Counted from the first letter of the stretch, positions 628 through 62,100 are shown. The stretch is DNA of 64,000 bases from Candidatus Liptonbacteria bacterium (GCA_023244895.1 JAHFLL010000001.1:83630-147629); one strand, 5' to 3'. The notes: generated by a model not told the origin, from the sequence alone. Program-made: numbers and translations.

Positions 628-1086
628 GCGCACTATCTGATAGGGTACGGGACTTGCCCCGTATCAATATTCATATTGGTACGGGGTTTATCCACAGGGT
701 GGGATGTTGTATGTCAATAAAAGAGTTATAATTGGGTCAGACCTTCGTCATCAAGCCAGGATGATGGGTGAAAATGCCCCAGCTTCGCAGCTCCGCTCAC
801 TTAGGCTGCAAGGGCATAACGCCCACCGTATTGAGGGCATCTTCATTCGTCCTTCTGGCTCTACATAGGGTAGTCAGCGTCCAACCGACTGCCCCCATCT
901 TCGAGTCCGAAGGCCATGCACATGCATGGCCTTCACTCATTTTGATAATTATCCCCAGGGAGTTGTTGCGCGATAAACATTTTTAATTAAAATAATAAAT
1001 AGCCCTGCGGTAGTTTCGCCAGCTCCTATGCGAATGCTCGTCGCAGAGAGTTGGTAGAACCGTCAGGTACGTGGAGGATCAGGACC

Positions 1087-1170
1087 ATGCGTGCATTCAA
1101 GGTCGTCGCGAACACCGAATCCCCGCCGAACTTCCTGCTGAACCTCCTGAAGGACCAGAACGTCCGCTAG
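1087..1170 (+). CDS. possible 27-aa peptide (MRAFKVVANTESPPNFLLNLLKDQNVR) in a high-GC patch
   Basis: GGAGG SD 8 nt upstream of the ATG; high-GC island leaves several frames open, so the call is weak. Confidence 0.2.
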   Translation: MRAFKVVANTESPPNFLLNLLKDQNVR

Positions 1171-1370
1171 CGCCACCAGCATCGCGCGAAGGACAGGCCA
1201 CCGTGCTTGGGTGTCGATTGCCGACAGCCCAAAGATCAACTTGGAGGGGGAGGGCAGAGCTCTCCCCCGCATCACTTTGAGCCCTGGAAATGGGTCTTTT
1301 TTTATGCTAAAATTAGTGGCGTAAATAATGAGATAGGGCGAATTAACCCTAATTTTTTTCTTGTAAAAAT

Positions 1371-3407
1371 ATGGCCAAAAAAGAAGATAAGCCCAAAAAA
1401 GAAGCAGGATATACCGCTAAAGACATATACGTTCTGGAAGGCTTAGAGCCGGTCCGCAAGCGTCCGGGCATGTACATCGGTTCTACCGGTCCGGATGGAC
1501 TTCACCACCTGGTTTGGGAGGTGGTAGATAACTGTATTGACGAGGCGATGGGCGGGTATGCCAAAAACATTTCAGTGGAGTTAAACGCGGATGGTTCAGT
1601 AAGCGTGGTAGACGACGGACGCGGTATTCCGGTAGAGACCCATCATCAAACTAAGAAATCCGCGCTAGAAACAGTTCTTACTACGCTCCACGCGGGCGGT
1701 AAGTTTGGCGGAGATTCATATAAGGTATCGGGTGGATTGCACGGCGTAGGAGTTTCGGTTGTCAACGCATTATCGGAATGGTTGAGAGTGGAAGTCCGCC
1801 GCGACGGCGGTCTCTTTATGCAGGAATATAAACGAGGTGTACCGAAAGCCAAGGTTAAAAAAATAGCTTCGTCCAAATTAACTGGCACAACGGTAACCTT
1901 CTTGCCGGACAAGGAAATATTCGCCACCCTAGACTTGAGTCTGACTCGCATCTTGGAGCACTTGCGTCAGCAGGCGTATCTTACCAAGGGCGTGAGACTG
2001 AATATCGTGGACCGGCGAAATGAAACCCCGGACTATTACGGATTTTATTTTGAGGGGGGCGTGAAGTCCTTCGTGAAATATTTGGCGCGGGACGAAAAGC
2101 TTCTACAAGAAGAAATATTTTACGTTCAAAAAGAATACGAGAATATGGAGGTGGAGACGGCCTTCATATATGTAAACGATCTGGAAACACGCGAGTTAAG
2201 TTTTGCTAACAACATCTACACTCCGGACGGAGGCATGCACATTACCGGGTTCCGGTCGGCTCTGACACGTTCCGTTAACAACTATGCTCGGGCAGAGGGG
2301 TATCTAAAAGAAAAGGACGACAACCTGACCGCGGATGACGCGCGGGAGGGCATGGTAGCGGTTATCTCCATTAAACTTCCCGAGCCCCAGTTTGAGGGTC
2401 AGACCAAGGCGCGCCTAGGAACTCCGGGCGCGAGGACCGCGACCGAGAGCGTAGTTAACGAAGCTATCAAGGAGTTTATGGAGAAGCACCCTCAAGAGGC
2501 GCGACGGGTGGTAGAGAAGGTTATTTTAGCAGCCAAGGCACGTCTAGCAGCCAAGGCAGCCAAGGACACGGTTCTGCGCAAGGGAGCGTTAGAGGGTCTG
2601 ACTCTGCCGGGCAAATTGGCGGACTGCAGTTCCAAACAAGCGTCAGAATCCGAAATCTTCATCGTGGAGGGAGACTCTGCCGGTGGCTCGGCAAAAGCCG
2701 GACGCGATCGCAGAACGCAGGCCATCTTGCCGGTTAAGGGAAAAATTTTAAACGTGGAGAAGGCGCGTTTGGACAAAATGCTCGCGAATGTGGAAATACG
2801 TTCGCTAGTGGTGGCGCTCGGCACCGCTATTTCGGACAGCTTTGATATCACCAAGTTGCGTTATCATAAAATTATACTTATGAGCGATGCGGACGTAGAC
2901 GGCGCGCATATCCGCACCCTATTTTTGACGCTCTTCTATCGTTACTTCCCGCAGATAATTGAGGGGGGATATCTTTATATCGCGCAACCGCCTCTCTTCC
3001 GCTTGCAGAGGGGTAAGGACATTAGATACGCGTATGACGAAAAGGAAAAAGAAAAGGAATTGGCGGATATGAAAGTAGTTAAGTCTGGTGGGGGCAAGTC
3101 AGACAAAAAGGCATCCGCCTTACCAGAGGAGGAATTGGCCGAAGGAGAGTCGGCCGTAATAGCGAGCGAAGGAGGGGAGAAGGTTGGCGGAGTGAGCATC
3201 GCGCGCTACAAAGGTTTGGGAGAAATGAATCCGGACCAGCTCTGGGAGACCACCATGAACCCCGAAAAACGCATTTTAAAGCAGGTGCAAGTGGACGATG
3301 CGGTCAAGGCAGATAAGCTCTTTAATGTTCTAATGGGCGACGAGGTGGAGCCCAGGAAACAGTTCATTCAAGCCCATGCGGCGCACGTTCAAAATCTGGA
3401 TGTCTAA
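1371..3407 (+). CDS. gyrB: DNA gyrase subunit B
   Basis: GHKL ATPase and TOPRIM motifs (GLHHLVWEVVDNCIDEA, EGDSAGGSAK, PLRGKILNVEKAR-like); 678 aa. Confidence 0.9.
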   Translation: MAKKEDKPKKEAGYTAKDIYVLEGLEPVRKRPGMYIGSTGPDGLHHLVWEVVDNCIDEAMGGYAKNISVELNADGSVSVVDDGRGIPVETHHQTKKSALETVLTTLHAGGKFGGDSYKVSGGLHGVGVSVVNALSEWLRVEVRRDGGLFMQEYKRGVPKAKVKKIASSKLTGTTVTFLPDKEIFATLDLSLTRILEHLRQQAYLTKGVRLNIVDRRNETPDYYGFYFEGGVKSFVKYLARDEKLLQEEIFYVQKEYENMEVETAFIYVNDLETRELSFANNIYTPDGGMHITGFRSALTRSVNNYARAEGYLKEKDDNLTADDAREGMVAVISIKLPEPQFEGQTKARLGTPGARTATESVVNEAIKEFMEKHPQEARRVVEKVILAAKARLAAKAAKDTVLRKGALEGLTLPGKLADCSSKQASESEIFIVEGDSAGGSAKAGRDRRTQAILPVKGKILNVEKARLDKMLANVEIRSLVVALGTAISDSFDITKLRYHKIILMSDADVDGAHIRTLFLTLFYRYFPQIIEGGYLYIAQPPLFRLQRGKDIRYAYDEKEKEKELADMKVVKSGGGKSDKKASALPEEELAEGESAVIASEGGEKVGGVSIARYKGLGEMNPDQLWETTMNPEKRILKQVQVDDAVKADKLFNVLMGDEVEPRKQFIQAHAAHVQNLDV

Positions 3408-3410
3408 GAG

Positions 3411-3500
3411 GGGTTGACCCCCACACCAAACAAGCCATTTTCTTATATTTAAGAAGGGTGGATTTTATGGCTTATTTGGTGTGGGGGTTGATTTTATTTA
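3411..3500 (+). terminator. long imperfect inverted repeat (GTTGACCCCCACACCAAA ... TTTGGTGTGGGGGTTGAT) plus T-rich tail after gyrB
   Basis: about 18-bp arms separated by about 45 nt, with a nested AAGCCAT/ATGGCTT repeat; followed by TTTTATTT. Confidence 0.5.
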
Positions 3501-3589
3501 GAAATACTGGCAGAATAGGAGCACAGGTTGATTAGAGATAGGCGGATAGCCTATTATTTTGTTGGTATCAGTGCAATTTCTAAACATAA

Positions 3590-4889: not shown

Positions 4890-4913
4890 CACTCAGGAAT
4901 TGCAACTAAGATA

Positions 4914-9171: not shown

Positions 9172-9453
9172 ATGAGCAAGGAGCATGCACCCATGGGGAA
9201 CAACCCGATCGACGTCTTGCTGCGTGAGCACGGCCTCGAACCGTTGCCTGGCGCTGGCAGAGAGGGGCTGTACGTGGCTCCGTTTGACGAGCACGCGTGG
9301 GAAGTCGCCACGGCGACATTCAAGAACGCCATCGGTAATGCGTCGGATCAGGCGGCCATCGCCGAGCTGATGGAACAGGCGATTCGGCTGTACGTGGAGC
9401 TCGTCGGACAGAACACGCGAGCGCCCGCCGAGGAGCCAAGACGATGCGCGTAG
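9172..9453 (+). CDS. hypothetical high-GC protein (93 aa)
   Basis: first ORF of a high-GC island; followed by a strong hairpin terminator; start codon uncertain. Confidence 0.35.
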   Translation: MSKEHAPMGNNPIDVLLREHGLEPLPGAGREGLYVAPFDEHAWEVATATFKNAIGNASDQAAIAELMEQAIRLYVELVGQNTRAPAEEPRRCA

Positions 9454-9461
9454 GCGCGTAA

Positions 9462-9503
9462 GTGGCCGCACCCTCCCGGGATGCGGCCACGATATTTAAT
9501 AAT
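9462..9503 (+). terminator. intrinsic terminator GTGGCCGCA(11-nt loop)TGCGGCCAC plus T-rich tail
   Basis: perfect 9-bp GC stem followed by GATATTTAATAAT. Confidence 0.55.
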
Positions 9504-9525: not shown

Positions 9526-9566
9526 ATGCAAAAAGTTACCCCCGGCGCACAGCGTGGCGCCAGGGG
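9526..9566 (-). terminator. intrinsic terminator for the PhoH-like gene (minus-strand CCCCTGGCGCC...GGCGCCGGGGG then TTTTTG)
   Basis: GC hairpin followed on the minus strand by TAACTTTTTGCAT. Confidence 0.6.
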
Positions 9567-9601
9567 TAGGGGACTTATGGACTCTCTCGTAGCGAGGACG
9601 G

Positions 9602-11062
9602 CTAGAGCAGTTTCGCCGCCAGCTCCGCGATCTTGGAGCGAACGACATCGTGCATCGCTAGGTGAGCGAAACAGGGCTGGCCCTTGAATCGTTCCACGAC
9701 CTGCACTAGCCCGTTTGAGAGCGAGTTGATCTCGCTACGGTCAATCTGGTCGGGGTCGCCCGTGAGGATCACGCGCGAGCCCTCGCCCGCCCGCGTGAGC
9801 ACGAGCTTCATGTCCTCTTGAGTGAGGTTCTGCCCGTCGTCCACAATGATGACGGCTTCGTGGATGGAGCGACCGCGCAGATAGTTAATCGGCGCGATAT
9901 CAAGGGCGTGCGTTTGGAGCAGACTCTCGACAGTCGGATGTGTCGATACCGCTTCTCCTCTGGTCGGTTGATGTTCGCCGACCGAGTTGGTGAAGCGTGT
10001 CGGACCATGCAGTCGGCGCATGATGAAGTCGAGGTTGTCGATGATGGGCCTGGCCCAAGGGGCCATCTTGTCTCCCAGATCTCCCGGGAGAAAGCCCAGT
10101 TCACGGCCCGCCTCGGCGTTGAGGCGGTAGACTTCGATACGCGAAACCTTGTGGCTCCGGAGCATCTTGTAGGCCGACAGGAGCGCAATGAGCGTCTTCC
10201 CCGTGCCGGCGATGCCGCTCAGGCTGGTGATTAGGGTATGATCGTCCATGATCAGGTCGTGCGCACAGAACTGTTCTGCGTTACACGGTCCGAAGCGTTC
10301 TTCCAGCTTGGTGTTGACGCGACGCAAGTAGCCTGGGGTTTCGTGACTCTTGTAGATTCCCCACGCACTCTTGCCCGTGCCGGCGACACAGATCTCACAG
10401 CACTGGTTGGCCATGATCTTACTCACATCTGTGTAGTCGGCCAGGGCACTCACCGGGAGCCGTTGCTCGTGGTGCAGAGTGTTCAGCAACGCTGCCTCGC
10501 CCTCTGGCACCTCAATGCGCAGGCGTCCCGAATAGAATTTCTCGGGAGCCTCCACGGCCCGGTCGCTCCGATAGTCTTCGGCCACGACGCCACGCGCGCG
10601 AGCCTTCATCCGCATCGCGGCATCGCGGGTGACGAGGATGACCCGTTCGTCCGGATGCGCGACCTGGTAGTTGTCAGCCAACATGATAATCGCATCATCG
10701 GCGTAGTCTCGGTTGAATCCGGGCCACGCGCGAGACAGGTCCAGCCTGCCCGCGTCGAATCGCAGCAGTCCTCCGTTCAGAGGGATTCCGTGCTGTAGTT
10801 CGTCGAGAGAGGCCCGCGTCTGAATGTCGTCCAAGAACCTGACCACGTTGCGGGCAGTGTACCCGACACCGTTTGCGGCAGCACGCCGCCGATCAAGTTC
10901 TTGGAGTACGGGGAACGGTATGACAACGACGTTCCCGTTGACCAGGGATTGCACGATTTCGGGCACGGCCACCAGCACGCTGGTGTCCGTAACGTAGGTC
11001 TTCTTCCCTACGTTTCCCGCTTCGCCGCTTAGCATGGATTGCTCCTTCGGGTTTGCCAACAC
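9602..11062 (-). CDS. PIN domain / PhoH-like ATPase fusion (YlaK-like)
   Basis: N-terminal PIN-like region (YVTDTSVLV...VVIPFPVLQELD) and C-terminal PhoH P-loop (LSGIAGTGKTLIAL); strong SD GAAGGAGCAATCC-ATG; GC3-rich codons unlike the backbone. Confidence 0.8.
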   Translation of the reverse strand: MLANPKEQSMLSGEAGNVGKKTYVTDTSVLVAVPEIVQSLVNGNVVVIPFPVLQELDRRRAAANGVGYTARNVVRFLDDIQTRASLDELQHGIPLNGGLLRFDAGRLDLSRAWPGFNRDYADDAIIMLADNYQVAHPDERVILVTRDAAMRMKARARGVVAEDYRSDRAVEAPEKFYSGRLRIEVPEGEAALLNTLHHEQRLPVSALADYTDVSKIMANQCCEICVAGTGKSAWGIYKSHETPGYLRRVNTKLEERFGPCNAEQFCAHDLIMDDHTLITSLSGIAGTGKTLIALLSAYKMLRSHKVSRIEVYRLNAEAGRELGFLPGDLGDKMAPWARPIIDNLDFIMRRLHGPTRFTNSVGEHQPTRGEAVSTHPTVESLLQTHALDIAPINYLRGRSIHEAVIIVDDGQNLTQEDMKLVLTRAGEGSRVILTGDPDQIDRSEINSLSNGLVQVVERFKGQPCFAHLAMHDVVRSKIAELAAKLL

Positions 11063-11142
11063 TTAAGTTGGGAGGTCCGAGTGCTCGCCTAATACTCCTT
11101 TCCGAGGCTGTCATTTGGTTGGAATGTAAAGGCCTCTGCCCC

Positions 11143-11178
11143 GAATTATACCCTTATGTAAGTTCAGAAAACAGCTGC
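11143..11178 (-). promoter_or_regulatory. candidate sigma70 promoter for the PIN-PhoH gene (perfect TATAAT -10)
   Basis: minus-strand ...TTTTCTGAACTTACATAAGGGTATAATTCGGGG about 80 nt upstream of the SD. Confidence 0.4.
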
Positions 11179-11211
11179 CTGTGGATAAGATTTATTGAGG
11201 TTTTATGCGGT

Positions 11212-12189: not shown

Positions 12190-12218
12190 TTGACTAATTA
12201 TACAAAATGTGATAAAAT
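12190..12218 (+). promoter_or_regulatory. near-consensus sigma70 promoter TTGACT-17-TGaTAAAAT (extended -10)
   Basis: seen directly; the -35 abuts the miaA start codon on the opposite strand. Confidence 0.5.
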
Positions 12219-12288
12219 ACGCAATAGCGTCGGTGAGCTGGGGCATAGGGCTCCGGCAATAGTCCGAGGCGGTATATCGGAGTGCGTC

Positions 12289-12684
12289 ATGACTGATGCT
12301 ATCGTGTTTGTGATCACGGCGTTCATGGTCGGCGGAGAGGTCTTCATGGCGGCATGGGGGATTTTCTCCTGGACATGCGTTGTGGCGTGGCTCGCTGTGA
12401 TGCTCTATCTCACCTGGGACATCTGGGGCGCCCGGGTCGTAGAGCTCCAGCGGGATCTCGTGGCCGAGTTGGAGGAAGGCACGCCGCCCGACTTCAGCTC
12501 GCAACGAGTACTCCCGCCAAGTAGGTGGGACATCGTCCATTTCGCTGGCGTGGACGAGCAGGGGCAGGCGAAGTTCGACTACCCCCTCCTTTCCGCGTTT
12601 GCCGCCTGGCTCCGCCACCACATTGTGATTGGCGGTGGTCGCTGGCGGTACGGCGACACGTTCCCGCCGGACGGCAGCCGGTAG
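12289..12684 (+). CDS. small membrane protein (about 131 aa, 2 predicted TM segments), high GC
   Basis: GGAG 8 nt upstream of the ATG; hydrophobic N-terminus (VFVITAFMVGG...WLAVMLYLTW); GC3-rich. Confidence 0.4.
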   Translation: MTDAIVFVITAFMVGGEVFMAAWGIFSWTCVVAWLAVMLYLTWDIWGARVVELQRDLVAELEEGTPPDFSSQRVLPPSRWDIVHFAGVDEQGQAKFDYPLLSAFAAWLRHHIVIGGGRWRYGDTFPPDGSR

Positions 12685-12746
12685 CCCCACTGAGACGGGG
12701 CAATAGTGACTGGGGTCCAACGTGGACCCCTTTCGCATTTTTATAT

Positions 12747-12775
12747 TTGACTAAAGTGGAAAGCGGGCATAGTTT
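12747..12775 (+). promoter_or_regulatory. candidate promoter TTGACTAAAGTGG...(-10 weak, TAGTTT)
   Basis: shares the TTGACTAA -35 box with the promoters at 12190 and 13853, and AAAGTGG with the one at 34703. Confidence 0.3.
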
Positions 12776-12798
12776 TTAAATCAGGAAAGGAGACGGCG

Positions 12799-12906
12799 AT
12801 GTTTCAAGCAGGCAACTCCTCGGACCCATGGGTCGTATTCGCGTTTGTGGTAATGGCGATTTTGGCCTGGGTTGTTCGCCGAATTGATCGGCGGAAAGGA
12901 GGATAG
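12799..12906 (+). CDS. 35-aa single-TM peptide (MFQAGNSSDPWVVFAFVVMAILAWVVRRIDRRKGG)
   Basis: AGGAAAGGAGAC SD 5 nt upstream; codons checked by hand. Confidence 0.4.
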   Translation: MFQAGNSSDPWVVFAFVVMAILAWVVRRIDRRKGG

Positions 12907-12907
12907 A

Positions 12908-13099
12908 ATGCAGCCGCCCACAGAGTTCAGGTTGGAAAACGTTCTGGCGGCTACGGGCCTCTTCGTTGCCTGGCTGGTCGGCAATCTCATAGCCGACTGT
13001 CGGGCGAGACGGAGAAGGACGAATGTGCCGAAACGTGGAAGCGGGCACGCTCCGCACGAACACTGCGAACACGAATGCGAGGAAAAGCGTGAAAGCTAG
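12908..13099 (+). CDS. 63-aa membrane peptide with His/Cys/Glu-rich tail (HAPHEHCEHECEE)
   Basis: AGGAGG SD; start lies 1 nt after the previous stop; a TM helix followed by a possible metal-binding tail. Confidence 0.4.
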   Translation: MQPPTEFRLENVLAATGLFVAWLVGNLIADCRARRRRTNVPKRGSGHAPHEHCEHECEEKRES

Positions 13100-13102
13100 G
13101 GG

Positions 13103-13145
13103 GCGAGTCGGAGAGCCGACTCGCCCTTACACATTTAATAATTTG
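13103..13145 (+). terminator. intrinsic terminator GGCGAGTCGG agag CCGACTCGCC plus T-rich tail
   Basis: perfect 10-bp stem 4 nt after the stop. Confidence 0.6.
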
Positions 13146-13170
13146 ACAAAGATTCGGAATAGTATTTGGA
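13144..13170 (+). promoter_or_regulatory. candidate promoter with TTGACA -35 inside the motif ATTTGACAAAGA (also present at 16636)
   Basis: -10 is ambiguous (TAGTAT or TATTTG with a short spacer). Confidence 0.3.
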
Positions 13171-13246
13171 TAGGGATAGCTTACTGCTCCGACGCTTTCG
13201 TGGGCCTTGGGGCAAATCTAGTGGGCGGAAGGGAGGGATCTCCGTG

Positions 13247-13378
13247 ATGTTGGCAGTCGCACTCTCGAGCGTCCCGATGTGGGCATGGCCAGTCATCGCC
13301 ATCGTGGCCGTCGTGGCTGCCGCTGTGGTTGCGCGGTTTTTCAGCGGCAGGAACTCGTCCACGAACCACGTCGCGTGA
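13247..13378 (+). CDS. 43-aa hydrophobic peptide (MLAVALSSVPMWAWPVIAIVAVVAAAVVARFF...)
   Basis: GGGAGGG SD; GTG-ATG start; one TM segment. Confidence 0.4.
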   Translation: MLAVALSSVPMWAWPVIAIVAVVAAAVVARFFSGRNSSTNHVA

Positions 13379-13387
13379 CACAGCAAG

Positions 13388-13440
13388 GGGGGCCGGAGGA
13401 AGCGTGCGTATGCACGCTCGCCAATGGCCCCCCGATCAAT
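13388..13440 (+). terminator. nested GC hairpins (GGGGGGCC...GGCCCCCC enclosing GCGTGC gtat GCACGC)
   Basis: lies downstream of the 43-aa ORF; followed by an AT-rich stretch. Confidence 0.4.
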
Positions 13441-13527
13441 TTCAATAATCGGATTGACGGATAGTCTTTTTTATACTTTCATATAGCGAGCGCACAATCA
13501 TCGCCACCTCGCCTCAAGGAGGTCGGA

Positions 13528-13815
13528 ATGGGTTTGATCTTGGTATATGCGATCGCACTGTATGCGATCATCGCCTTCGTGCACGGAGCACAAGGTGGAA
13601 ATCGGGAAGATGTGAACGAAGAATCCGCACGTCCGCCGCTCTGGTGGATAGCGATCCACACTCTCGGAAGCTGGCTGGCTCTCCAGCCAAAGCTCTTCCC
13701 GGAGCGTTGGTGCGAATTCGTGTGTCGGTTCAAGATGTTGCGCGGGTCTCTGTGTCGGCGAATGACGGAGGTCGTCCGTCGTGGCTGGCACCTGATTGGT
13801 GCGAACATAGAATGA
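13528..13815 (+). CDS. 95-aa membrane protein with Cys-rich C-terminus (WCEFVCRF...SLCRR)
   Basis: AAGGAGG SD 6 nt upstream; two hydrophobic segments. Confidence 0.45.
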   Translation: MGLILVYAIALYAIIAFVHGAQGGNREDVNEESARPPLWWIAIHTLGSWLALQPKLFPERWCEFVCRFKMLRGSLCRRMTEVVRRGWHLIGANIE

Positions 13816-13852
13816 AGGGGCTTCCGGCACGCGTCGGCGGTCCCTTTCTGTT

Positions 13853-13881
13853 TTGACTAATCAGCCATTTTGTTTTTATAT
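13853..13881 (+). promoter_or_regulatory. sigma70-like promoter TTGACT-17-TTATAT
   Basis: TTTTGACTAA -35 context shared with 12190 and 12747. Confidence 0.45.
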
Positions 13882-13896
13882 ATAGTCAGCACGTAT

Positions 13897-13917
13897 CTTC
13901 CGGTGTGCTACGCACCG
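13897..13917 (+). promoter_or_regulatory. 5'-UTR hairpin TCCGGTG tgctacg CACCGGA
   Basis: perfect 7-bp inverted repeat between the promoter and the SD of the 178-aa ORF. Confidence 0.35.
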
Positions 13918-13939
13918 GAGTTGCCGTTTTGGAGGACAC

Positions 13940-14476
13940 ATGACCGGCGAAGTTCTAGTAGCAGTTCTGCTGGGCGTAATCATGGGGGTCGCAATTCTGG
14001 GCTCAATGGACCGTGCCACCTGGCGGCGAGTCTGGGACGAGATCTTCGCCGACGCCTGGTGCGTCCAGGCCACGAAGAACACCTACGAGTCCGTTGTGGG
14101 TGCGATTCTGTGGCTCGGGGTCATGGTGGCGGGTCTCGCTATTCAAGCGGCGGGGTCGGTGCGGGCATGGTGGCGAGAGAAAGTATTTGTGCCACCGCGC
14201 GTTGCCATCAAAACGTTCGCGGACGCGACGGGTCGCGAAGGCGAGAACACTATGGTGTTCATCTCCGAGGTGGGCATCCTGGTCTGGCGGCTGTTGCTTT
14301 GGCTCGCGATAGCAGCTGTCGCGAGCGTTTTCCGCCAGCTCCTCGCTGAGCGGGCAGAGACAAAACGGGTTTTCGCCACATTTGCCGACTCCATAGAGGC
14401 GGACGACCACTTCTGTGCGACGACCCTAACCAATCGGCAGGATGCCGCTTGCGAAGCCGTGAGGTCAGTCAAGTAG
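13940..14476 (+). CDS. 178-aa polytopic membrane protein (about 4 predicted TM segments)
   Basis: GGAGG SD; alternating hydrophobic helices; high GC. Confidence 0.5.
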   Translation: MTGEVLVAVLLGVIMGVAILGSMDRATWRRVWDEIFADAWCVQATKNTYESVVGAILWLGVMVAGLAIQAAGSVRAWWREKVFVPPRVAIKTFADATGREGENTMVFISEVGILVWRLLLWLAIAAVASVFRQLLAERAETKRVFATFADSIEADDHFCATTLTNRQDAACEAVRSVK

Positions 14477-14484
14477 ACCAGTCT

Positions 14485-14520
14485 GGGGCTCCGCGTATGT
14501 CGGAGCCCCTTACGCTTTTC
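14485..14520 (+). terminator. intrinsic terminator GGGGCTCCG cgtatgt CGGAGCCCC plus T-rich tail
   Basis: perfect 9-bp stem ending the high-GC island. Confidence 0.6.
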
Positions 14521-16635: not shown

Positions 16636-16670
16636 GATTTGACAAAGAGCACTTTAATATGTTTATTATA
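16636..16670 (+). promoter_or_regulatory. candidate promoter containing ATTTGACAAAGA (identical 12-mer to 13142-13153)
   Basis: TTGACA -35 followed by an AT-rich -10 region (TATTATAGT). Confidence 0.35.
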
Positions 16671-16689
16671 GTGTCAGGAGGACGCGAGC

Positions 16690-16911
16690 ATGCAACACAA
16701 GTCGTCATGTGAGATTCTGGGCCACCACGCCGATCCCAAGCTCGGAGAGGCTTGGAGGAGGGCGTCAAGCTTGAGCCAAGAGGCGATACTTCTCGCCCAA
16801 GCACAGGACGAAGCTGGACTGGCGGAGAACCTTGAGGCTCAGGACGCAAACCGAGCCGAGGTAAACCGCCTCGAGGCCGAGGGTTGCACCTGTGGCGCAG
16901 CCAACCGCTAG
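16690..16911 (+). CDS. 73-aa hydrophilic high-GC protein
   Basis: AGGAGG SD; followed by a GC hairpin and T-run. Confidence 0.4.
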   Translation: MQHKSSCEILGHHADPKLGEAWRRASSLSQEAILLAQAQDEAGLAENLEAQDANRAEVNRLEAEGCTCGAANR

Positions 16912-16930
16912 GGCGGGAAGCAGGAAAAGG

Positions 16931-16963
16931 GGCGCACGCGTCGTGCGCCTCGAACTTTTATAA
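16931..16963 (+). terminator. intrinsic terminator GGCGCACG cgt CGTGCGCC then TCGAACTTTTATAA
   Basis: perfect 8-bp stem followed by a T-run. Confidence 0.55.
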
Positions 16964-17024
16964 GAGGACTCCGAATCCCCAAAAACGTCTTCACGTGGCG
17001 GGGATAGTGAGTTATGATAGTTCC

Positions 17025-26420: not shown

Positions 26421-26549
26421 AGACAGAAAGGGGCTCTGTGCTAACCCTACTCTGGGCTTGTGTTTTCAATAATTCATTGTATTATTCGGCCAGACTAAAA
26501 GCCTCGCTAGGGGCTTATGGCGTGAGCCATTTCATTGGGGGAGGTCGCC

Positions 26550-26831
26550 GTGGACGCTTTGAGTTATGTCTTGGTCGTCGTACTCGCTGGAGTGGTCATC
26601 TGGCTTGCGAATCGTCTGAGGGTACTGAAGAAGGAAAACGCGCAACTGAGCGCGAGTCTCGCGACGGCGCAGGCTGCTCTGCCGCCCGAAGGAACGGAGC
26701 AGTCTCTGCAGGGCATCACGTTTGACCTGCTGTGGGTTTGCCGAACATGCGGCTGGTTCGGTAGAAACAACGTGCTTTACAAGCACGTTCGGCGCGCGCA
26801 CGGAGTAGCAGGTCCACCCGAAGCTGCGTGA
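26550..26831 (+). CDS. 93-aa high-GC protein: TM anchor, coiled coil, C2H2-like zinc-finger tail (CRTCGWFGRNNVLYKHVRRAH)
   Basis: GGGGGAGG SD 5 nt upstream of a GTG start; the track ORF begins at an upstream TTG. Confidence 0.4.
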   Translation: MDALSYVLVVVLAGVVIWLANRLRVLKKENAQLSASLATAQAALPPEGTEQSLQGITFDLLWVCRTCGWFGRNNVLYKHVRRAHGVAGPPEAA

Positions 26832-26839
26832 GTACAAGT

Positions 26840-26885
26840 AGGCCCCCATGGCGAATCGCCCATCGGGGGCCTTTCGCTTTATGTT
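26840..26885 (+). terminator. intrinsic terminator AGGCCCCC(17-nt loop)GGGGGCCT then TTCGCTTTATGTT
   Basis: perfect 8-bp GC stem followed by a T-rich tail. Confidence 0.55.
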
Positions 26886-28698: not shown

Positions 28699-28746
28699 TA
28701 AAAACTAAAATGCAAACGGCTCACCGGGACTAATTCCGGCGAGCCG
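28699..28746 (-). terminator. intrinsic terminator for the 114-aa gene (CGGCTCGCCGG aattagt CCGGTGAGCCG then TTTGCATTTT on the minus strand)
   Basis: 11-bp GC stem followed by a T-run. Confidence 0.55.
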
Positions 28747-28780
28747 TGCAGTTCGGGTCCGAGGCTGGCTTGTCGCTAGC

Positions 28781-29125: not shown

Positions 29126-29156
29126 GCGCTCCTCCAGTCTGTTGGGACCTAGCGCT

Positions 29157-33412: not shown

Positions 33413-34711
33413 ATGAAGAAGAAAAATAAAAAGAAGACCAAGCCGGTTAGAAAGATAAGAAAGGTATTAAAAAAGAAGAAATCTGCGAAAAAAGTTATTA
33501 AGAAAACGAAGAAGGCGGTTAAGAAAGTTGCCAAAAAAATAAAGAAGGCGAAGAAGGTCAAGAAGGTTGCTCACAAGAAGAAGCCGCTAAAAAAGTCCGG
33601 CAAGAAGGGGGAGAAAAAGGGTAAGGGTAAAATAGACACGGCGGCTCTAGAAGAGCTGATTGAGCGCGGCCGTCCGCGCGGATTTGTGACCGACAACGAA
33701 ATCCTTTATTTCTTTCCCGATATAGAAAAGGACGTTTCATTTTTGGACGAGGTCTATGATCGCCTAGAGAAAGCAAATATAAAAGTAATTGAGACAGAGG
33801 GTTTAATAAAAGTGGAGGAGAAGGATGAGCCGACCGAATCCGAATTGGCGGATTTGGCGAGTCTGGAGCGTGGCACTCCGGACGCGGTGCAGGTGTATTT
33901 GAAGGAAATCGGCAAGACGCCTCTCTTAACCAAACAAGAAGAGAGAGACTTGGCCAAGCGCTCGGATGCCGGCGACGAGGAGGCGAGACAAAAGTTAATG
34001 AAAGCCAACCTGCGCCTAGTGGTTTCTATCGCCAAGCGCTACGCCAACCGCACCCCCAACCTTTCTATTTTAGACCTAATCCAGGAGGGTAATATTGGTT
34101 TATCCCGCGCGGTGGAAAAATTTGACTATCGCAAGGGATTTAAGTTCTCAACCTACGCAACCTGGTGGATTCGCCAGGCGATTACGCGCGCCCTAGCGGA
34201 CCAGTCTCGCACTATTCGTATTCCGGTCCACATGGTAGAGACTATCTCTAAGTACGCGCAGGCCAGGCGTCAGATGATACAGGAGCTGGGCAGAGAGCCA
34301 CTGCCGGAAGAAATTGCCGCGGAAATGGGTCTGGACGTAGACAAGGTTTTGCATATCCAAAAAATTTCCCAAGAAGTTTTATCAATTGAGGCGCCGGTAG
34401 GAGATGAGGAGGATTCCACTCTATCCGACTTCATTCCGGACGAGAAGACAACCACTCCTTCTCAGCTCGCGGCACACGCTCTTTTGCGCGACTTACTCAA
34501 AGAAATAATGATAGATCTGACCGAGCGCGAGCAGAACATTTTGAAAATGCGTTTCGGCTTAGAGGATGGCGTGAGCCACACCCTAGAAGAGGTGGGTAAG
34601 GTTTCCGGTGTTACTCGCGAGCGTATCAGACAGATAGAAGCTAAGGCACTAGAGAAGATCCGCGACCATCACAAAGCTAAGGCGTTGGAAGGTTTTGATA
34701 GCTTGACTTAA
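33413..34711 (+). CDS. rpoD: RNA polymerase sigma factor RpoD (Lys-rich N-terminal tail)
   Basis: sigma70 regions 2-4 ([14 protein letters not shown], helix-turn-helix in region 4.2). Confidence 0.9.
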
Positions 34712-34731
34712 TTATAATTTGATTATATAAA
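34703..34731 (+). promoter_or_regulatory. sigma70-like promoter TTGACT-17-TATAAA whose -35 overlaps the rpoD stop codon
   Basis: TTGACTTAATTATA... parallels TTGACTAATTATA at 12190, and AAAGTGG parallels 12755. Confidence 0.45.
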
Positions 34732-34798
34732 GTGGTCAGAAATCGGGGCCGTGTGGTCTCGAGTCTTTGAATCTGCCACCCCAATCTTAGGAGGAGCC

Positions 34799-35431
34799 GT
34801 GGAGCCGAAATTCCGCTACGCCGAAGTTGGTCTGTACGGCGGGAAAAACTGGCAAAGAGTCATATCTCTGTGCCGCCTCTTCGTGCAGCCGCTCTTCAGC
34901 TGCGCGATCGTTATCATCTTATGGCACATCATGATTTGGACGAAGCAGTACTACCCGCCCGCAATCGTGTCCATGGTGGAAAACACTCACCTGCAGTGGG
35001 TTGGCGCGATACACGGTGCGCTTGCAGTCTTCTTGTTGGTTTTCCAGAGTTCGGAAAATTGGAGCAAGATGATCGATGCCTTCGAGCTGGGCGAGGACGA
35101 CGAGTTCGTGAGGCTCATCCACAAGCAGGCCAATCCTCCGCCGGTGAAGTACGTCCTGCGAGTTACCGGGGCAGCGACCAACCTGCTCTCAATCAGCTTT
35201 CCAGTCTCCAATTACAACTGGAACCTGATACTGGTCTTCATCGTGGCCTTCATCGTGGCCATCCTGTGGGAGATGCTGATGGAGATGGAAAACCCCACAG
35301 ACGGAATCTGGGCCATCCTCAACATTCCTTTGAGGCTGGCGGAGAGAGTCAGGGATCTCAATCTCCCGAAGCGGCGGATGGATCGCTTCTGGGAGTGGCT
35401 GGCCAACCGCGTCGCGCCAGCCAAGAGCTAG
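34799..35431 (+). CDS. high-GC polytopic membrane protein (about 210 aa from a GTG start)
   Basis: AGGAGGAG SD then GTG; several hydrophobic helices; GC-rich. Confidence 0.45.
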   Translation: MEPKFRYAEVGLYGGKNWQRVISLCRLFVQPLFSCAIVIILWHIMIWTKQYYPPAIVSMVENTHLQWVGAIHGALAVFLLVFQSSENWSKMIDAFELGEDDEFVRLIHKQANPPPVKYVLRVTGAATNLLSISFPVSNYNWNLILVFIVAFIVAILWEMLMEMENPTDGIWAILNIPLRLAERVRDLNLPKRRMDRFWEWLANRVAPAKS

Positions 35432-35455
35432 AGCGTGGAGAGCAATGCAAGCATC

Positions 35456-35494
35456 GCGCCCGGGTGAAGTTCCCCGGGCGCAGCTGTTTATTTG
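35456..35494 (+). terminator. intrinsic terminator GCGCCCGGG tgaagttcc CCGGGCGC then AGCTGTTTATTTG
   Basis: perfect 8/9-bp stem followed by a T-rich tail. Confidence 0.55.
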
Positions 35495-46227: not shown

Positions 46228-46234
46228 AGTTAGT

Positions 46235-46400
46235 TTAGACATTGAGGAGGGGAAAGGGGTCGGGGAGGGGCGGGAAATGAGCCTCTCCCTGGGGCGGAAG
46301 CACTGGAACCGAGGGGTTCCAGGGAGCGAGCTGGCGAGCGACTCCTCAATGGGCAAAGCGTTAGAAAACAAAAAGACCCCCGAGCGGGGGTCTTTTTGTT
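46235..46400 (+). other. GC-rich structured element, possibly an sRNA or leader, or a 44-aa ORF with SD
   Basis: 10-bp long-range inverted repeat CATTGAGGAG / CTCCTCAATG about 90 nt apart, inner 8-bp repeat CTGGAACC gagg GGTTCCAG, ends in GACCCCCGAGCGGGGGTC plus TTTTTGTTG. Confidence 0.35.
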
Positions 46401-46436
46401 GTGCTGCCTAGAGTCTTCCGGGAAACTGAGTAGGAG

Positions 46437-52564: not shown

Positions 52565-52600
52565 AGGAAAACAGTGGATTCTTAAAGCGTTCCGCCCGAG
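52565..52600 (-). terminator. hairpin CCGCCCG(15-nt loop)CGGGCGG downstream of the 143-aa gene (minus strand)
   Basis: perfect 7-bp GC stem; T-tail weak. Confidence 0.35.
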
Positions 52601-52622
52601 CTTACATTAAGCGCGGGCGGGG

Positions 52623-53052
52623 CTACTTGAATACGATGGTCTGCGCCGAAGGCGGCTCGGGGAACGATTCTCGAACAATCCGGCATTGGTCTGCGCAGTA
52701 GTCACAGGCCGTGACGTGCGCGTGAATCAGGCCTCTTTGGATCCTGCCGTTTTGTTTTGTTTCCAACTGACCCAGGGCGTAAGCCGCCAGAACCTCTACG
52801 GGCGGGCAATCTCGGCTCATGCGCTCTATGGTTTTCTTGTCTTCGTCGGTCATGTCGAACAAATAGGCGCCCCCATATTTGCTGAGATAGCGTCCCTTGC
52901 TGACGAAAACAAGGAAACTCGAGGGAGCGTGGAATAGGTAGTAGAGCAGGACGATCCATCCGCTCCCGGAGTATCCGGAGCGGTGCAGGTCGGCCAAGCT
53001 TTGCGCCAAAGTAAGTGCTACCCAGAATATCGCTCTCCTGACTTTCGGCATG
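52623..53052 (-). CDS. high-GC 143-aa protein: two hydrophobic helices plus zf-HC2-like (anti-sigma-type) HxxxCxxC tail
   Basis: AGGAGG SD 6 nt upstream of ATG 53052; motif HAHVTACDYCADQC. Confidence 0.45.
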
Positions 53053-53127
53053 GCCAACCTCCTTTCGGTGTAGATAAGGGGCCAGTGTTTCTGCTTAGAT
53101 TATGGGTAATTTATAGAATCAGTCAAA

Positions 53128-54216: not shown

Positions 54217-54245
54217 TTGCAAAGTTAAAAATCTTTTGATATTAT
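54217..54245 (+). promoter_or_regulatory. sigma70 promoter TTGCAA-17-TATTAT
   Basis: canonical spacing; AT-rich context upstream of the high-GC 271-aa ORF. Confidence 0.5.
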
Positions 54246-54285
54246 ATAGCCCGCACAACATAAACCAATCACCACTCACAATAAT

Positions 54286-55101
54286 ATGCATCCAGGAGAA
54301 CACGGCGTGGAGAACAAAGACAGCAAACGCAGGATGACCCAGGAAGAGGCAGAACTTTTCGCGCGGGACGCGCGATACACGACTCCGGAATCGTTCCGTT
54401 ACAGCTGTTGCGTGGATGGACGGGAAGAAGGCGCAGATGCTTCGCGGGCAGTGCCTGGCGCAGACGCGGGCTACTTCATGTCTGCTCTTGCCGCTCTCCG
54501 GGAATCCGGAGTAGAGGTCACCCCTGAGGTGCGTCGCGCGGTTTTCGGTGCAGTGATTGACTCGGTCGGCGGCCCAAAGAACATCCGTTTCCACACCGAC
54601 CTTCACGCCTTGGAAAAGGCGAAGGAAAAGGGAGTTGTTGCGGGAGTGGCTGCTGGCTGTGGTCATCTCAATTTGGCTCGGCAGAACCCCGGAGTTTACG
54701 GCGTCACCGCGGAAGATATGTCCGCGATCGACGAGGAGCTCCTAAGGCTGCTCGGCGAGGACGCTGATCAGAAGACCCTCCCCGGCAATCACGGCGAGGA
54801 AGCAGTGATGGTGGTGGACGATGTTTCTGTCGGGTTACGCCACCAGGCCGCCGGCAGTCAGGCCTTCGTGTACCACAAGGGTTCGAGCGATGCCTTTTTA
54901 GACCAGCTGGCGGGAGCGGTCTTGGCGAAGCTACCGAACCATCAGCCCGGTCTCACCGAAGAAGCTCTGCGCGTTAAACTGGGAGCATCTTTCGATAGGC
55001 AGCTTACCGCCACGGTGAATAGCCTGGCGCCCGGCCTGCCTCAGTACCGGGTGAGCGGGGAAGAGGTTTCCTACTTGGGCGACGTTCCCAAGAAAGAGTA
55101 G
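54286..55101 (+). CDS. high-GC hypothetical soluble protein (271 aa; start may be the GTG at about 54304 after an AGGAGA SD)
   Basis: about 60% GC; Cys motifs CCVDGRE and AAGCGH; no confident family. Confidence 0.45.
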   Translation: MHPGEHGVENKDSKRRMTQEEAELFARDARYTTPESFRYSCCVDGREEGADASRAVPGADAGYFMSALAALRESGVEVTPEVRRAVFGAVIDSVGGPKNIRFHTDLHALEKAKEKGVVAGVAAGCGHLNLARQNPGVYGVTAEDMSAIDEELLRLLGEDADQKTLPGNHGEEAVMVVDDVSVGLRHQAAGSQAFVYHKGSSDAFLDQLAGAVLAKLPNHQPGLTEEALRVKLGASFDRQLTATVNSLAPGLPQYRVSGEEVSYLGDVPKKE

Positions 55102-55196
55102 TAGGCGGTACCTACTAAGAGTTATGAAAACAAGAACGCCCTGCGGTCAACGCGACCCCGGGGCATTCAAGTTTTTATAGGCTAAATATTATTTTT

Positions 55197-60982: not shown

Positions 60983-61837
60983 CTAGTGAGCAGGCTCATG
61001 CTTGGCATCTTCCGGGCCGTGGTGGTCGGTGATAGCTATGGCGACAAAAACCAGGGCGAGCATTGAGAAGATAAGGGCCTGGATGGCGCCCACAAATACT
61101 TCCAGGAATAAGAAGGGGAGTGGCACAAGATAGGGCGCCAAGAAACCTACGATAGCGAGCAGAACCTCTCCGGCAAAGATGTTGCCGAAAAGACGGAAGG
61201 AGAAAGAGATCATGCGTGCGCCCTCCGAAACTAATTCTATTATTCCCACAAAGAAATTGATGGGGTTGCTGAAGTTTAAGAACTTGCCCGCGTAGCGGAA
61301 TGCGCCGATTGCGAATGCCCCCAGGAGATTCACGGTCAGAACCGTTACTACTGCGAGCGCTAGGGTAAAGTTCAGATCCGCGGAGGGCGCGCGCAAGAGG
61401 GGCGCGGTTTCTTCGCCGTAGAACATTATGGAGCCCACGCCCGGCAAGAGACCGAACCAGTTAGAGAACATAACAAAGATAAAAATAGTGGCGATAAGCG
61501 GCAGATATTTTTCGGATTTACGCCGGTCGCCCAGGACGCTATCCATCATATCCAAGATAAATTCCAGGAAGAACTCAAAAACATTCTGCAGTTTTCCGGG
61601 AATTATCTTTATCTTTTTGCGCGCGAAAATGGCTATACTGGAGAACAAAACCAGGATTAGGGTGGCTAATATAAGAGAATTGGTCACGGCAAAAGAGCCG
61701 ATATGGAAAATGGGCTCCGCCTTAAGGGAGATGTGAGGTCCTCCGCCCTCATGCTCCACCTGAGTTGTTTGAGTTTCGGCTGAAAGTCCGGTTTCGGTAG
61801 GCATTTCTTTGATAGGTGTTTCTTGTCCCGCGGACAT
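60983..61837 (-). CDS. atpB: ATP synthase Fo subunit a
   Basis: RLFGNIFAGE motif. Confidence 0.9.
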   Translation of the reverse strand: MSAGQETPIKEMPTETGLSAETQTTQVEHEGGGPHISLKAEPIFHIGSFAVTNSLILATLILVLFSSIAIFARKKIKIIPGKLQNVFEFFLEFILDMMDSVLGDRRKSEKYLPLIATIFIFVMFSNWFGLLPGVGSIMFYGEETAPLLRAPSADLNFTLALAVVTVLTVNLLGAFAIGAFRYAGKFLNFSNPINFFVGIIELVSEGARMISFSFRLFGNIFAGEVLLAIVGFLAPYLVPLPFLFLEVFVGAIQALIFSMLALVFVAIAITDHHGPEDAKHEPAH

Positions 61838-61885
61838 GTTAAAACTGGCATATTATATAGGAAAATCGGCCGATAATCAAATTTC

Positions 61886-61915
61886 TTGACACCTTGTTTT
61901 TAGAATGCAATATAA
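61886..61915 (+). promoter_or_regulatory. candidate promoter TTGACA-17/18-(A)ATATAA
   Basis: upstream of the 32-aa peptide ORF. Confidence 0.35.
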
Positions 61916-61938
61916 GAGGTAGTAACGGAGGCAGATAT

Positions 61939-62037
61939 ATGACCGTTTTTCAGGGAATCCTGGCAAACCTGTTTTGCCTCGTCGCGCTGGCGGGATTCAT
62001 GTCCTGGCTCTTGTTCGGTCCGCCAAGCAGAAGCTAA
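61939..62037 (+). CDS. 32-aa hydrophobic peptide (MTVFQGILANLFCLVALAGFMSWLLFGPPSRS)
   Basis: GGAGG SD 7 nt upstream; followed by a terminator; not in the ORF track. Confidence 0.4.
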   Translation: MTVFQGILANLFCLVALAGFMSWLLFGPPSRS

Positions 62038-62063
62038 GCCCAAGCCAGTTGGTCCAAAGCCCC

Positions 62064-62100
62064 CGGTCCGCCCCAAAAGCGGACCGGACCTACTTTAATA
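62064..62100 (+). terminator. hairpin CGGTCCGC cccaaaa GCGGACCG plus T-rich tail
   Basis: perfect 8-bp stem. Confidence 0.45.

Follow-up and report, generated by a model that had tools for sequence, protein, structure and literature searches.

Here we describe a set of small GC-rich genes in a 64,000-nucleotide stretch of DNA from a Candidatus Liptonbacteria bacterium (GCA_023244895.1, JAHFLL010000001.1:83630-147629; the whole stretch is hereafter called the window). About 13 autonomous units, distributed over 8 well-supported intergenic slots, lie between the housekeeping operons of this chromosome, and their genes differ from the surrounding backbone in composition and in carrying strong Shine-Dalgarno (SD) sequences. 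The reading that we favour, with a probability of about 0.6, is that these units are moron-like accessory genes acquired horizontally by a cellular chromosome, with turnover slot by slot. The initial annotation of the window, made from the sequence alone, had listed at least 11 such cassettes or islands; of that list, islands 1, 8 and 11 are doubtful.

Two gene classes in one chromosome

The window is genuine chromosome of a Liptonbacteria-related bacterium of the Parcubacteria, within the Candidate Phyla Radiation (CPR). Its backbone comprises gyrB, secE-nusG-rplK, tmk, gatB, miaA, thrS, serS, alr and lepA, followed by dnaG-rpoD, alaS, infA, the rpsM-to-rpsI block, ileS, tsaD and the atp operon. 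Taxonomy by threonyl-tRNA synthetase (ThrRS) places it in Patescibacteria/Parcubacteria, with the Candidatus Liptonbacteria metagenome-assembled genome (MAG) L003 as its nearest match in the species collection (79% identity) and the Minisyncoccia MAG L004 as the second nearest (69%). Rifle and other groundwater metagenomes yielded a sister species (loci L088/L089, L093, L097 and L108); its backbone proteins are 88-100% identical to those of the window (ThrRS 94%, GyrB 98%, L11 100%), and its NUDIX protein is 66% identical.

Because the compositional contrast is sharp, the initial annotation had allowed for a chimeric or engineered contig. Nothing else favours an assembly chimera, a GC-rich contaminant or an engineered construct, and the probability that we leave to it is practically nil. 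The window lies within the ENA contig ERZ27279977:k141_80858 (171.5 kb), and the independent Logan assembly of run SRR14366796 has the same DNA (100% identity over 19.7 kb and 99.995% over 21.8 kb) in a stretch that covers islands 2, 3 and 4, with identical junctions. All four window proteins looked up (ThrRS, DUF4230, AtpD and GyrB) recur on 3-5 contigs, some of them in the 0.2-1 Mb class, and three island genes (PIN-PhoH, hyp178 and hyp271, listed below) are also found on an NCBI contig of 840,672 bp. Moreover, the islands measure 0.2-2.4 kb with syntenic core genes on either flank, and orthologous islands stand at the same positions in the sister, which comes from other samples, and in L003, so that the chimera reading can be ruled out.

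GC content is 0.494 for the whole window, 0.567 on average for the listed islands and 0.482 for the remainder. The contrast between islands and backbone is real, but single islands have 51-60% GC rather than the 60-65% first proposed. Backbone genes have a GC of 0.44-0.53 and a GC at third codon positions (GC3) of 0.47-0.63, and the 14 island genes reach 0.53-0.65 and 0.56-0.86, respectively, with GC3 of at least 0.64 in 12 of them. First and second codon positions (GC1 and GC2) are also raised in the island genes, as expected if their proteins evolved in a GC-rich genome. The share of C/G-ending codons rises from backbone to island genes in most amino-acid families (Leu 0.57 to 0.86, Ile 0.27 to 0.65, Phe 0.45 to 0.83, Asn 0.47 to 0.79; the exceptions are Ala, Pro and Cys), and the island proteins contain more Ala, Val, Trp, Cys, His and Arg and less Lys, Ile, Phe and Tyr.

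The second difference concerns translation initiation. Strong GGAGG-type SDs located 5-10 nt upstream of the start codon precede 12 of the 14 island genes versus 2 of the 55 backbone genes (Fisher p=8.8e-10), and the median best anti-SD duplex energy is -9.75 kcal/mol for island genes versus -1.1 kcal/mol for backbone genes. The proposal that the backbone is SD-less and starts in A-rich contexts is thereby confirmed (0.41 A at backbone starts vs 0.27), and the companion proposal of GGAGG SDs at island genes stands for those 12 genes but fails at hyp271 (island 10) and at the open reading frame (ORF) of island 1. Many operon-first backbone genes show a TAnAAT box 6-9 nt before the ATG, among them miaA (12189), a PMT_2 gene (22428), tmk (5328), lepA (24592), prsW (49914), a gene for a 379-aa hypothetical protein (39147) and other hypotheticals; so short a distance from the start codon implies leaderless mRNAs. 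The units are as follows (hyp, hypothetical protein; TM, transmembrane; UTR, untranslated region).

9193..9497 (+), island 2a: hyp86, 86 aa, soluble, GC3 0.78, SD aaggagc; hairpin/T terminator 9462-9497
9530..11211 (-), island 2b: PIN-PhoH (PhoH2-type) ATPase ORF 9602-11035, GC 0.61, GC3 0.75, SD gaaggagc; terminator 9530-9568; upstream region to 11211
12190..12742 (+), island 3 unit 1: promoter 12190-12218 (TTGACT-17-TAAAAT with TG, back-to-back with the leaderless miaA promoter); 5'UTR; hyp131 12289-12684 (TM, GC3 0.80); terminator 12712-12742
12747..13136 (+), island 3 unit 2: promoter 12747-12775; hyp35 12799-12906 and hyp63 12908-13099, both TM and SD-led, hyp63 with a His/Cys tail; terminator 13101-13136
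13143..13433 (+), island 3 unit 3: promoter 13143-13171; 75-nt 5'UTR; hyp43 13247-13378 (43-aa TM peptide); terminator 13387-13433
13454..13854 (+), island 3 unit 4: promoter 13454-13482; hyp95 13528-13815; terminator 13817-13854
13853..14519 (+), island 3 unit 5: promoter 13853-13881; 5'UTR hairpin; hyp178 13940-14476 (3 TM helices); terminator 14485-14519
16637..16975 (+), island 4: promoter 16639-16667; hyp73 16690-16911 (soluble, SD caggagg); terminator 16929-16959
26470..26880 (+), island 5: hyp93 26550-26831 (TM helix, coiled region, C-x2-C-x11-H-x4-H motif, SD gggggagg); terminator 26841-26880
28707..29184 (-), island 6: promoter 29157-29184 (TTGCCA-16-TATTTT with TG); hyp114 28781-29125 (3 TM helices, GC3 0.86, SD ctggagga); terminator 28707-28747
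34703..35493 (+), island 7: promoter 34703-34731; hyp210 34799-35431 (3 TM helices, GC3 0.79, SD taggagga); terminator 35456-35493
52584..53126 (-), island 9: promoter 53099-53126 (TTGACT-16-CATAAT); hyp142 52623-53051 (SD aaaggagg); terminator 52584-52622
54217..55176 (+), island 10: promoter 54217-54245; hyp271 54286-55101 (GC 0.60, no SD, soluble); terminator 55138-55176
1063..1330 (-), island 1, doubtful: GC-rich element divergent from gyrB; ORF hyp69 1063-1272, no SD
46230..46420 (+), island 8, doubtful: G-rich stretch after the S9 terminator (46202-46227); possible 44-aa ORF from 46277; terminator 46370-46399; no promoter recognised
61886..62096 (+), island 11, doubtful: TTGACA box 61886; SD acggagg; 32-aa hydrophobic ORF 61939-62037; hairpin 62063-62096

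Island 3 is made of five tandem units on the + strand. In each of them a TTGAC(A/T/G) -35 box is separated by 17 nt from a -10 box with ATAG after it; then come a 20-100 nt leader, an SD and one or two ORFs, and the unit closes with a GC hairpin and T-run. Islands 4, 5, 6, 7 and 9 are single units of the same design. Altogether, a predicted promoter (-35/17/-10) together with a hairpin and T-run could be recognised at the sequence level for 11 units. As first annotated, two promoters touch the ends of backbone genes, the one at 12190 abutting the miaA start and the one at 34703 overlapping the rpoD stop. The products are mostly hydrophobic, as had been noticed: most have predicted TM helices, and hyp63, hyp93 and hyp142 carry Cys/His motifs. 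The C-terminal HxxxCxxC of hyp142 is of the type found in zinc-binding anti-sigma factors, and neither hyp142 nor hyp93 has a Pfam match.

The promoters and terminators themselves proved less distinctive than the initial annotation had suggested. TTGACA-17-TATAAT-like promoters are present in the units of island 3, but promoter-like matches in the window are not enriched over shuffles (19 vs 16.9, 23 vs 20.8 and 21 vs 18.7) and the -10 boxes are mediocre. Promoter motifs had also been thought to be shared between islands, yet their counts are at chance: TTGACTAA occurs 3 times in the window, a count reached by 28 of 100 shuffles, ATTTGACAAAGA occurs twice, which 9 of 100 shuffles reach, and the site at 34703 reads TTGACTTAA. 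Likewise, the units of islands 3, 4, 5, 6, 7 and 9 do end in a GC hairpin and T-run, but backbone operons have the same kind of terminator (after rplK, rpsI and hsp20), and backbone promoters with the -10/ATAG arrangement of the islands precede prsW, lepA and tsaD. Island promoters and terminators are therefore native-type and not foreign, the island-specific features are limited to coding composition, SD and long 5'UTR, and of the expression signals initially described as foreign only the SD sets the islands apart.

As regards the doubtful islands, islands 8 and 11 are tiny; in island 1, the first ~130 nt (~40 codons) of hyp69 and the region upstream (1146-1330) are ~96% identical to the sister, above gyrB, and its 3' part is unalignable. 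We found no Rfam match for this segment divergent from gyrB, which may serve in regulation or as an RNA instead of encoding a protein. The 27-aa + strand ORF originally placed in island 1 is unsupported, since the conserved element lies on the - strand and has no SD.

Conservation and turnover in related genomes

We compared the window with the sister by the Nei-Gojobori method, taking omega as the ratio of nonsynonymous to synonymous divergence (dS). Omega was 0.00-0.11 for nine core genes with measurable dS, and 0.24 for PIN-PhoH, 0.26 for hyp63, 0.31 for hyp178 and 0.24 for hyp271; for hyp131 it was 0.44 with dS near saturation, and hyp95 and hyp142 were saturated. Island proteins are 24-78% identical between window and sister, and their ORFs 37-76% at the nucleotide level. 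Judged from these substitution patterns, the island ORFs are real coding genes that are under relaxed purifying selection and evolve far faster than the backbone. Their regulatory segments are better preserved: promoter cores and terminators reach 100% identity to the sister at the promoter of unit 1 (P1), 98% at the terminator of unit 2 (T2) and 92% at that of unit 4 (T4), with 74-88% at other segments, and in island 9 promoter, SD and terminator are conserved around a hyp142 ORF of 39% identity; the junction between units 1 and 2 is not conserved. Such conservation is not peculiar to islands, as backbone promoters reach the same degree (at least 95%), and so do some coding stretches.

The search for empty sites in relatives, one of the checks proposed with the initial annotation, gave positive results for four islands. 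The miaA-thrS gap, which holds the 2.4-kb island 3 in the window, is 328 bp long in L004, and only 85 bp separate lepA from the next gene in L003, at the place of island 5 in the window. The sister has no island 6. Island 4 is a ~340-bp insertion with base-precise borders, found only in the window lineage and absent in the sister and in L003; it splits a GGGGAATCCCC palindrome at its midpoint, and the sister has this palindrome uninterrupted and L003 has it near-intact.

Other islands are shared and differ in content. The sister has island 2b, most of island 3 and islands 7, 9 and 10, and its rpoD-alaS slot holds, besides the hyp210 orthologue, two more GC-rich genes (of 134 aa, SD-led, and of 282 aa). 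At the hyp95 slot the sister has an unrelated 118-aa ORF between conserved promoter and terminator, and L003 keeps a hyp95 homologue. The window has hyp86 and hyp414, and the sister has neither. In composition the latter gene (7915-9159, +) is backbone-like; it overlaps the gatB stop, lacks an SD and matches no Pfam family. Lineage-specific genes are thus not all GC-rich. In the more distant L003 the island 3 array lies downstream of thrS with its order unchanged, and its promoters are recognisably homologous (TTGACTAAT..., TTGAC-N16-TTTGGATA, TTGACG..TAGT.TTTTTTATA). The genes of that array have SDs and a GC3 of 0.65-0.79 vs 0.54-0.61 for the L003 backbone, and its proteins include the hyp95 homologue (37% identity, E=4e-9) and a match to the C-terminal part of hyp178 (37%, E=1e-6). 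The different cargo and the gains and losses relative to the sister mark the slots as hotspots of continuing turnover, and the conserved syntenic positions of most cassettes across species indicate mainly vertical inheritance on which this slot-wise turnover is superimposed. A replacement was also seen within backbone-like composition: between yjbQ and a 100-aa gene the window has genes for an ABC-3 permease and an ABC ATPase of the metal-uptake type (29677-31160), and the sister has a single Zip-family transporter gene in their place (L108, 931-1668).

The initial annotation had spoken of a possibly mobile minigene family, a description that we could not uphold. No repeat family links the islands, and we found no flanking repeats, terminal inverted repeats, target duplication or attC sites around them, no recombinase and, in the Pfam gene tables, no integrase. 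A metagenome scan with the pattern of the unit 4 promoter (P4) returned only the sister contig and chance matches. Three viral-contig scans were empty, blastn of island 3 against phages and plasmids gave nothing, and scans with PHROGs and PADLOC recovered PhoH only. Consequently, integrons, transposons and miniature inverted-repeat transposable elements were rejected for want of such features, and a phage, plasmid or defence origin for want of any viral, phage or plasmid match beyond PhoH. Classical genomic islands exceed 10 kb, adjoin tRNAs and bring an integrase and flanking direct repeats; the units differ from them in being 0.2-2.4 kb long, not adjoining tRNAs and showing no repeats.

A different kind of mobility, confined to the clade, would arise if conserved terminator-promoter modules served as recombination anchors, as in the promoter early stem-loops (PeSLs) of T4-type phages, so that ORFs were swapped between related genomes. 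The replacement at the hyp95 slot and the different cargo of the rpoD-alaS slot bear indirectly on such shuffling. There is a PeSL precedent (PMC2839356), the tandem-unit junctions are the best conserved segments (T2, T4 and P1 above) around ORFs that have diverged or been replaced, and island 4 is a clean 340-bp insertion running from promoter to terminator. We nevertheless hold shuffling to be quite unlikely: the modules do not form a repeat family, and the motifs that they share are no more frequent than chance allows; a conservation of at least 95% is seen in backbone promoters and coding stretches as well; no recombinase was found, and hyp131 and its sister counterpart s96 form a pair that has diverged (31% identity, E=3e-6) and was not swapped.

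For the smallest units (hyp35, hyp43 and the island 11 ORF) one may think of type I toxin-antitoxin-like loci, in which a hydrophobic toxic peptide is combined with a structured leader and an antisense RNA. Each of these peptides of 32-43 aa has a single hydrophobic helix, and hyp43 with its leader retains 88-95% nucleotide identity to the sister, synonymous sites included (95% for the ORF). Similar nucleotide conservation is seen in core genes, however, which also led us to reject recent exchange as the explanation of the 95% value. The island leaders fold no better than shuffles, with the exception of the unit 1 leader (z=-2.6), no paralogous copies exist, there is no Rfam match at the gathering threshold, and neither an RNA partner nor an antisense promoter is known, although no search aimed at such promoters was made. 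Thus, we regard this identification as improbable.

Origin of the island genes

The clearest origin is that of the PIN-PhoH gene. Its product combines an N-terminal PIN domain with a PhoH ATPase (PF13638 and PF02562), matches phrog_2765 over its full length (E=9e-94) and has thousands of homologues; the sister protein is 78% identical, and the best other named ones belong to Acidobacteriota/Vicinamibacterales (73-76%). In a neighbour-joining tree of the top 60 matches the two CPR proteins pair off in a clade of their own, on long branches. One high-scoring homologue, P0008, adjoins cytochrome bd genes on a contig with a GC of 0.70 and has an SD; the window gene shares 75% DNA identity with it, and its GC3 of 0.75 is intermediate between that of P0008 (0.95) and that of the backbone (0.55). 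In the clade the gene is patchy, being present in the sister and not next to miaA in L004. By these sequence comparisons, PIN-PhoH demonstrably derives from horizontal gene transfer (HGT) out of a GC-rich, Acidobacteriota-like donor and has since been partly ameliorated, and the transfer is older than the split of the window and sister species. HGT from other phyla into Patescibacteria has been documented (PMC12455944).

For the other island proteins the picture is narrower. Pfam gives no family for any small island protein. The only homologue of hyp178 is in the sister. Among the 12 weak relatives of hyp210, one that is 29% identical has ECF-sigma, PadR and PspC genes for neighbours, and its surroundings are probably non-CPR. 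There are five homologues of hyp271, and all three loci examined adjoin tsaD in CPR relatives; hyp271 is thus an old gene that keeps its syntenic place beside tsaD in the sister and in relatives at greater distance. Its initial description as a cassette encoding a 271-aa soluble protein fits its GC-richness, promoter and terminator, but not its lack of an SD or its age. With its five homologues it shares invariant CCVDGR, FHTDxH and GCGH motifs, and its AlphaFold model (pLDDT 82.5, pTM 0.82) has as best Foldseek match the zeta-class cadmium/zinc carbonic anhydrase CDCA1 (7bez_B, 3bob; prob 1.0, E=2e-3, TM 0.42-0.51). On the basis of this model, hyp271 may belong with the beta/zeta-type carbonic anhydrase-like metalloenzymes, as a very divergent member.

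CPR bacteria are uncultured episymbionts whose hosts and accessory functions are largely uncharted. According to the horizontal reading that we favour, the core mRNAs of this bacterium would be leaderless or have short A-rich leaders and would be translated without an SD, and the accessory units would each combine a native-type sigma-70 promoter, an SD leader of 20-100 nt, a single GC-rich ORF (two in one case) and an intrinsic terminator. Such units would be insulated add-on genes between housekeeping operons, leaving the flanking operons undisturbed, and their slots have been filled, emptied or refilled between sister species. The orphans other than PIN-PhoH would have entered by HGT from GC-rich, SD-using organisms, possibly the host of the episymbiont or its neighbours. 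The cassette genes would depend on SD-anti-SD pairing because GC-rich leaders presumably cannot use the unstructured or leaderless route. The small membrane proteins may act at the envelope and host interface or in stress responses, a role that would explain their fast evolution.

Several observations weigh against this reading. Although PIN-PhoH is foreign and islands are inserted relative to relatives, as the initial proposal of horizontal acquisition implied, a donor lineage can be named for that one gene only; homologues of hyp178 and hyp271 are restricted to close CPR relatives and those of hyp210 are weak. The units shared with L003 have a GC3 of 0.64-0.80 in all three genomes, at a distance (ThrRS 79%) where synonymous sites are saturated, and they are just as GC-rich as the window-only cassettes (0.68-0.86). 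GC3 therefore does not fall with cassette age, which plain amelioration does not predict; either selection keeps the cassettes GC-rich or they are replaced by fresh alleles from outside. Since promoters and terminators are native, the transferred unit cannot simply have been a donor promoter, gene and terminator. No insertion mechanism is visible either, the search for repeats and a recombinase having found none. Finally, judging by gene content, the window seems to lack a uL1 gene after L11, matching the uL1-lacking Parcubacteria, which are reported often to be without an anti-SD (PMC9297842).

This last point touches the SD itself. The CCTCCT anti-SD motif is reported from only 48% of Parcubacteria, and those without it mostly overlap the uL1-lacking group (Tsurumaki et al., PMC9297842). 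The gene tables of the window and its flanks contain no L1 gene, and neither the window nor any fetched locus contains rRNA and hence a 16S 3' end. Downstream of rplK (L11), where rplA would stand, lie a bidirectional terminator and a small - strand ORF (4467-5189). Avoidance of internal SD-like motifs in core genes, taken as a proxy for a working anti-SD, is not clearly evident, the two z-scores differing in sign (GGAGG z=+0.95, AGGAG z=-2.5). In other Patescibacteria, SD use at ThrRS loci is 0-33% and GC-rich SD-led ORFs are rare outside the clade, as estimated by a crude scan and gene calling. The orthologous cassettes of the sister and L003 retain their SDs although synonymous sites are near saturation, which suggests that the SDs are used, and a minority class of genes with strong conserved SDs points to a usable anti-SD or to another role of the motif. 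If, as reported for many uL1-less Parcubacteria, the 16S of this organism lacks the anti-SD, some other function would have to account for the conserved GGAGG boxes.

The same persistence of GC3 and SDs in three genomes with saturated synonymous sites would be expected if the island genes, PIN-PhoH excepted, were native lineage-specific genes in which selection maintains GC-rich codons, long leaders and SDs, that is, a second, SD-dependent translation class such as a conditionally expressed envelope or host-interaction regulon. Native-type and highly conserved promoters and terminators, the synteny of hyp271 in distant relatives and the lack of homologues outside the clade for most island proteins agree with this. 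Yet PIN-PhoH, which bears the same signature, was clearly acquired, several units exist in one sister species only, and GC1 and GC2 are shifted as for proteins that evolved in a GC-rich genome; besides, other non-housekeeping hypotheticals of the backbone have ordinary GC3 and no SD. We therefore consider a native class unlikely, though deserving of serious attention.

Further observations concern upstream motifs, RNA elements and repeats. Only two backbone genes, secE and the DUF4230 gene, have an SD-like box, and they share the upstream motif AATAACGGGGAGA (3592-3616 and 37414-37438). A motif of ~30 nt, TCATTCGG...TTCGTAGATTCGGG, lies before rplK, atpG and atpF, its end 11-13 nt from the start codon (4426-4456, +; 57915-57945, -; 60457-60487, -), and may be a non-SD translational or regulatory element; its 14-nt core by itself is not above chance. 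Rfam at the gathering threshold finds two tRNAs only (27884 and 48146), neither adjoining an island, and relaxed RNA-family scans of islands 1, 4 and 8 gave nothing or sub-threshold matches around two terminator hairpins. The thrS-serS spacer (16434-16636) is conserved in the sister and L003 and contains two hairpins, CCTCCGCAGGAGG and GCCCGCCTAGGGAGGCG then GTAGTAGT repeats, which may represent a thrS leader or a small RNA; it has no Rfam match at E<=1. Heptamer-like repeat runs (TAGAAGT/TAGAAGG/TAGAATC...) directly follow the stop codons of several backbone genes (541-576, 20313-20354, 27847-27886, 40285-40334, 42559-42583 and also 53932-53967; inverted, 20393-20445 and 29664-29694), and one run lies inside tsaD. 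The sister tsaD has an extra insert rich in GGAATTA units at a different position from the window run.

Relation to known systems and to translation in Parcubacteria

The closest comparison is with phage morons of the HK97/HK022 type, single-gene units with their own promoter and terminator and deviant GC that lie between genes adjacent in relatives and are thought to derive from HGT (PMC3594210). The units described here likewise have putative promoters and terminators of their own, deviant composition and, at islands 3, 4, 5 and 6, empty sites. They are not morons in the strict sense, because their replicon is a cellular chromosome, with gyrB, aminoacyl-tRNA synthetase, rpoD, ribosomal protein and atp flanks, and not a phage or prophage; moreover, their small proteins match no phage family and the contrast extends to the mode of translation initiation. 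PeSLs consist of a hairpin terminator followed by a sigma-70 promoter between small ORFans and form a repeated, recombining family (PMC2839356, PMC4122927). The composite junctions T1/P2, T2/P3, T3/P4 and T4/P5 of island 3 resemble them, as do the ORF indels and replacements between close relatives around conserved regulatory modules, whereas nothing beyond generic -35 and hairpin features is common to the modules described here, and the genome is cellular. Integron cassettes resemble island 3 in that small ORFs, most of them orphans, stand in tandem, all in the same orientation and with an inverted repeat behind each; unlike them, the units have their own promoters, occupy many scattered sites, have short, sequence-unrelated hairpins and show no attC, integrase or attI.

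Within the Patescibacteria, cross-phylum acquisitions in streamlined CPR genomes, mostly old transfers, have been reported (PMC12455944), and PIN-PhoH resembles them; that study describes larger islands, prophages and single enzymes, and no arrays of 0.3-0.6 kb promoter-SD-ORF-terminator units or SD dichotomy. SD-poor systems, namely Bacteroidota and the anti-SD-less Parcubacteria (PMC9297842), share with the window the SD-less, A-rich core starts and, next to L11, the apparent absence of uL1, but here a minority class retains strong conserved SDs.

A bolder reading would join these elements. The clade would keep two translation-initiation regimes, a leaderless or SD-less core and a GC-rich, SD-dependent regulon of tiny membrane proteins; the latter would be selected beyond species-level time, renewed slot by slot through recombination at terminator-promoter modules as a cellular counterpart of morons and PeSLs, and maybe fed by a GC-rich (Acidobacteriota-like) host. 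We put it forward tentatively and think it rather doubtful.

If the simple HGT reading is true, these islands would be an unusually tidy, rather than revolutionary, case of gene acquisition. The locus offers a clean, testable example of a streamlined genome taking up insulated single-gene units beside essential operons, and the transfer from Vicinamibacterales-like Acidobacteriota makes these bacteria candidate hosts or close neighbours of the organism. The coexistence in one genome of SD-led accessory genes with an SD-less core bears on how Parcubacteria start translation, for which the two gene classes provide a natural internal control.

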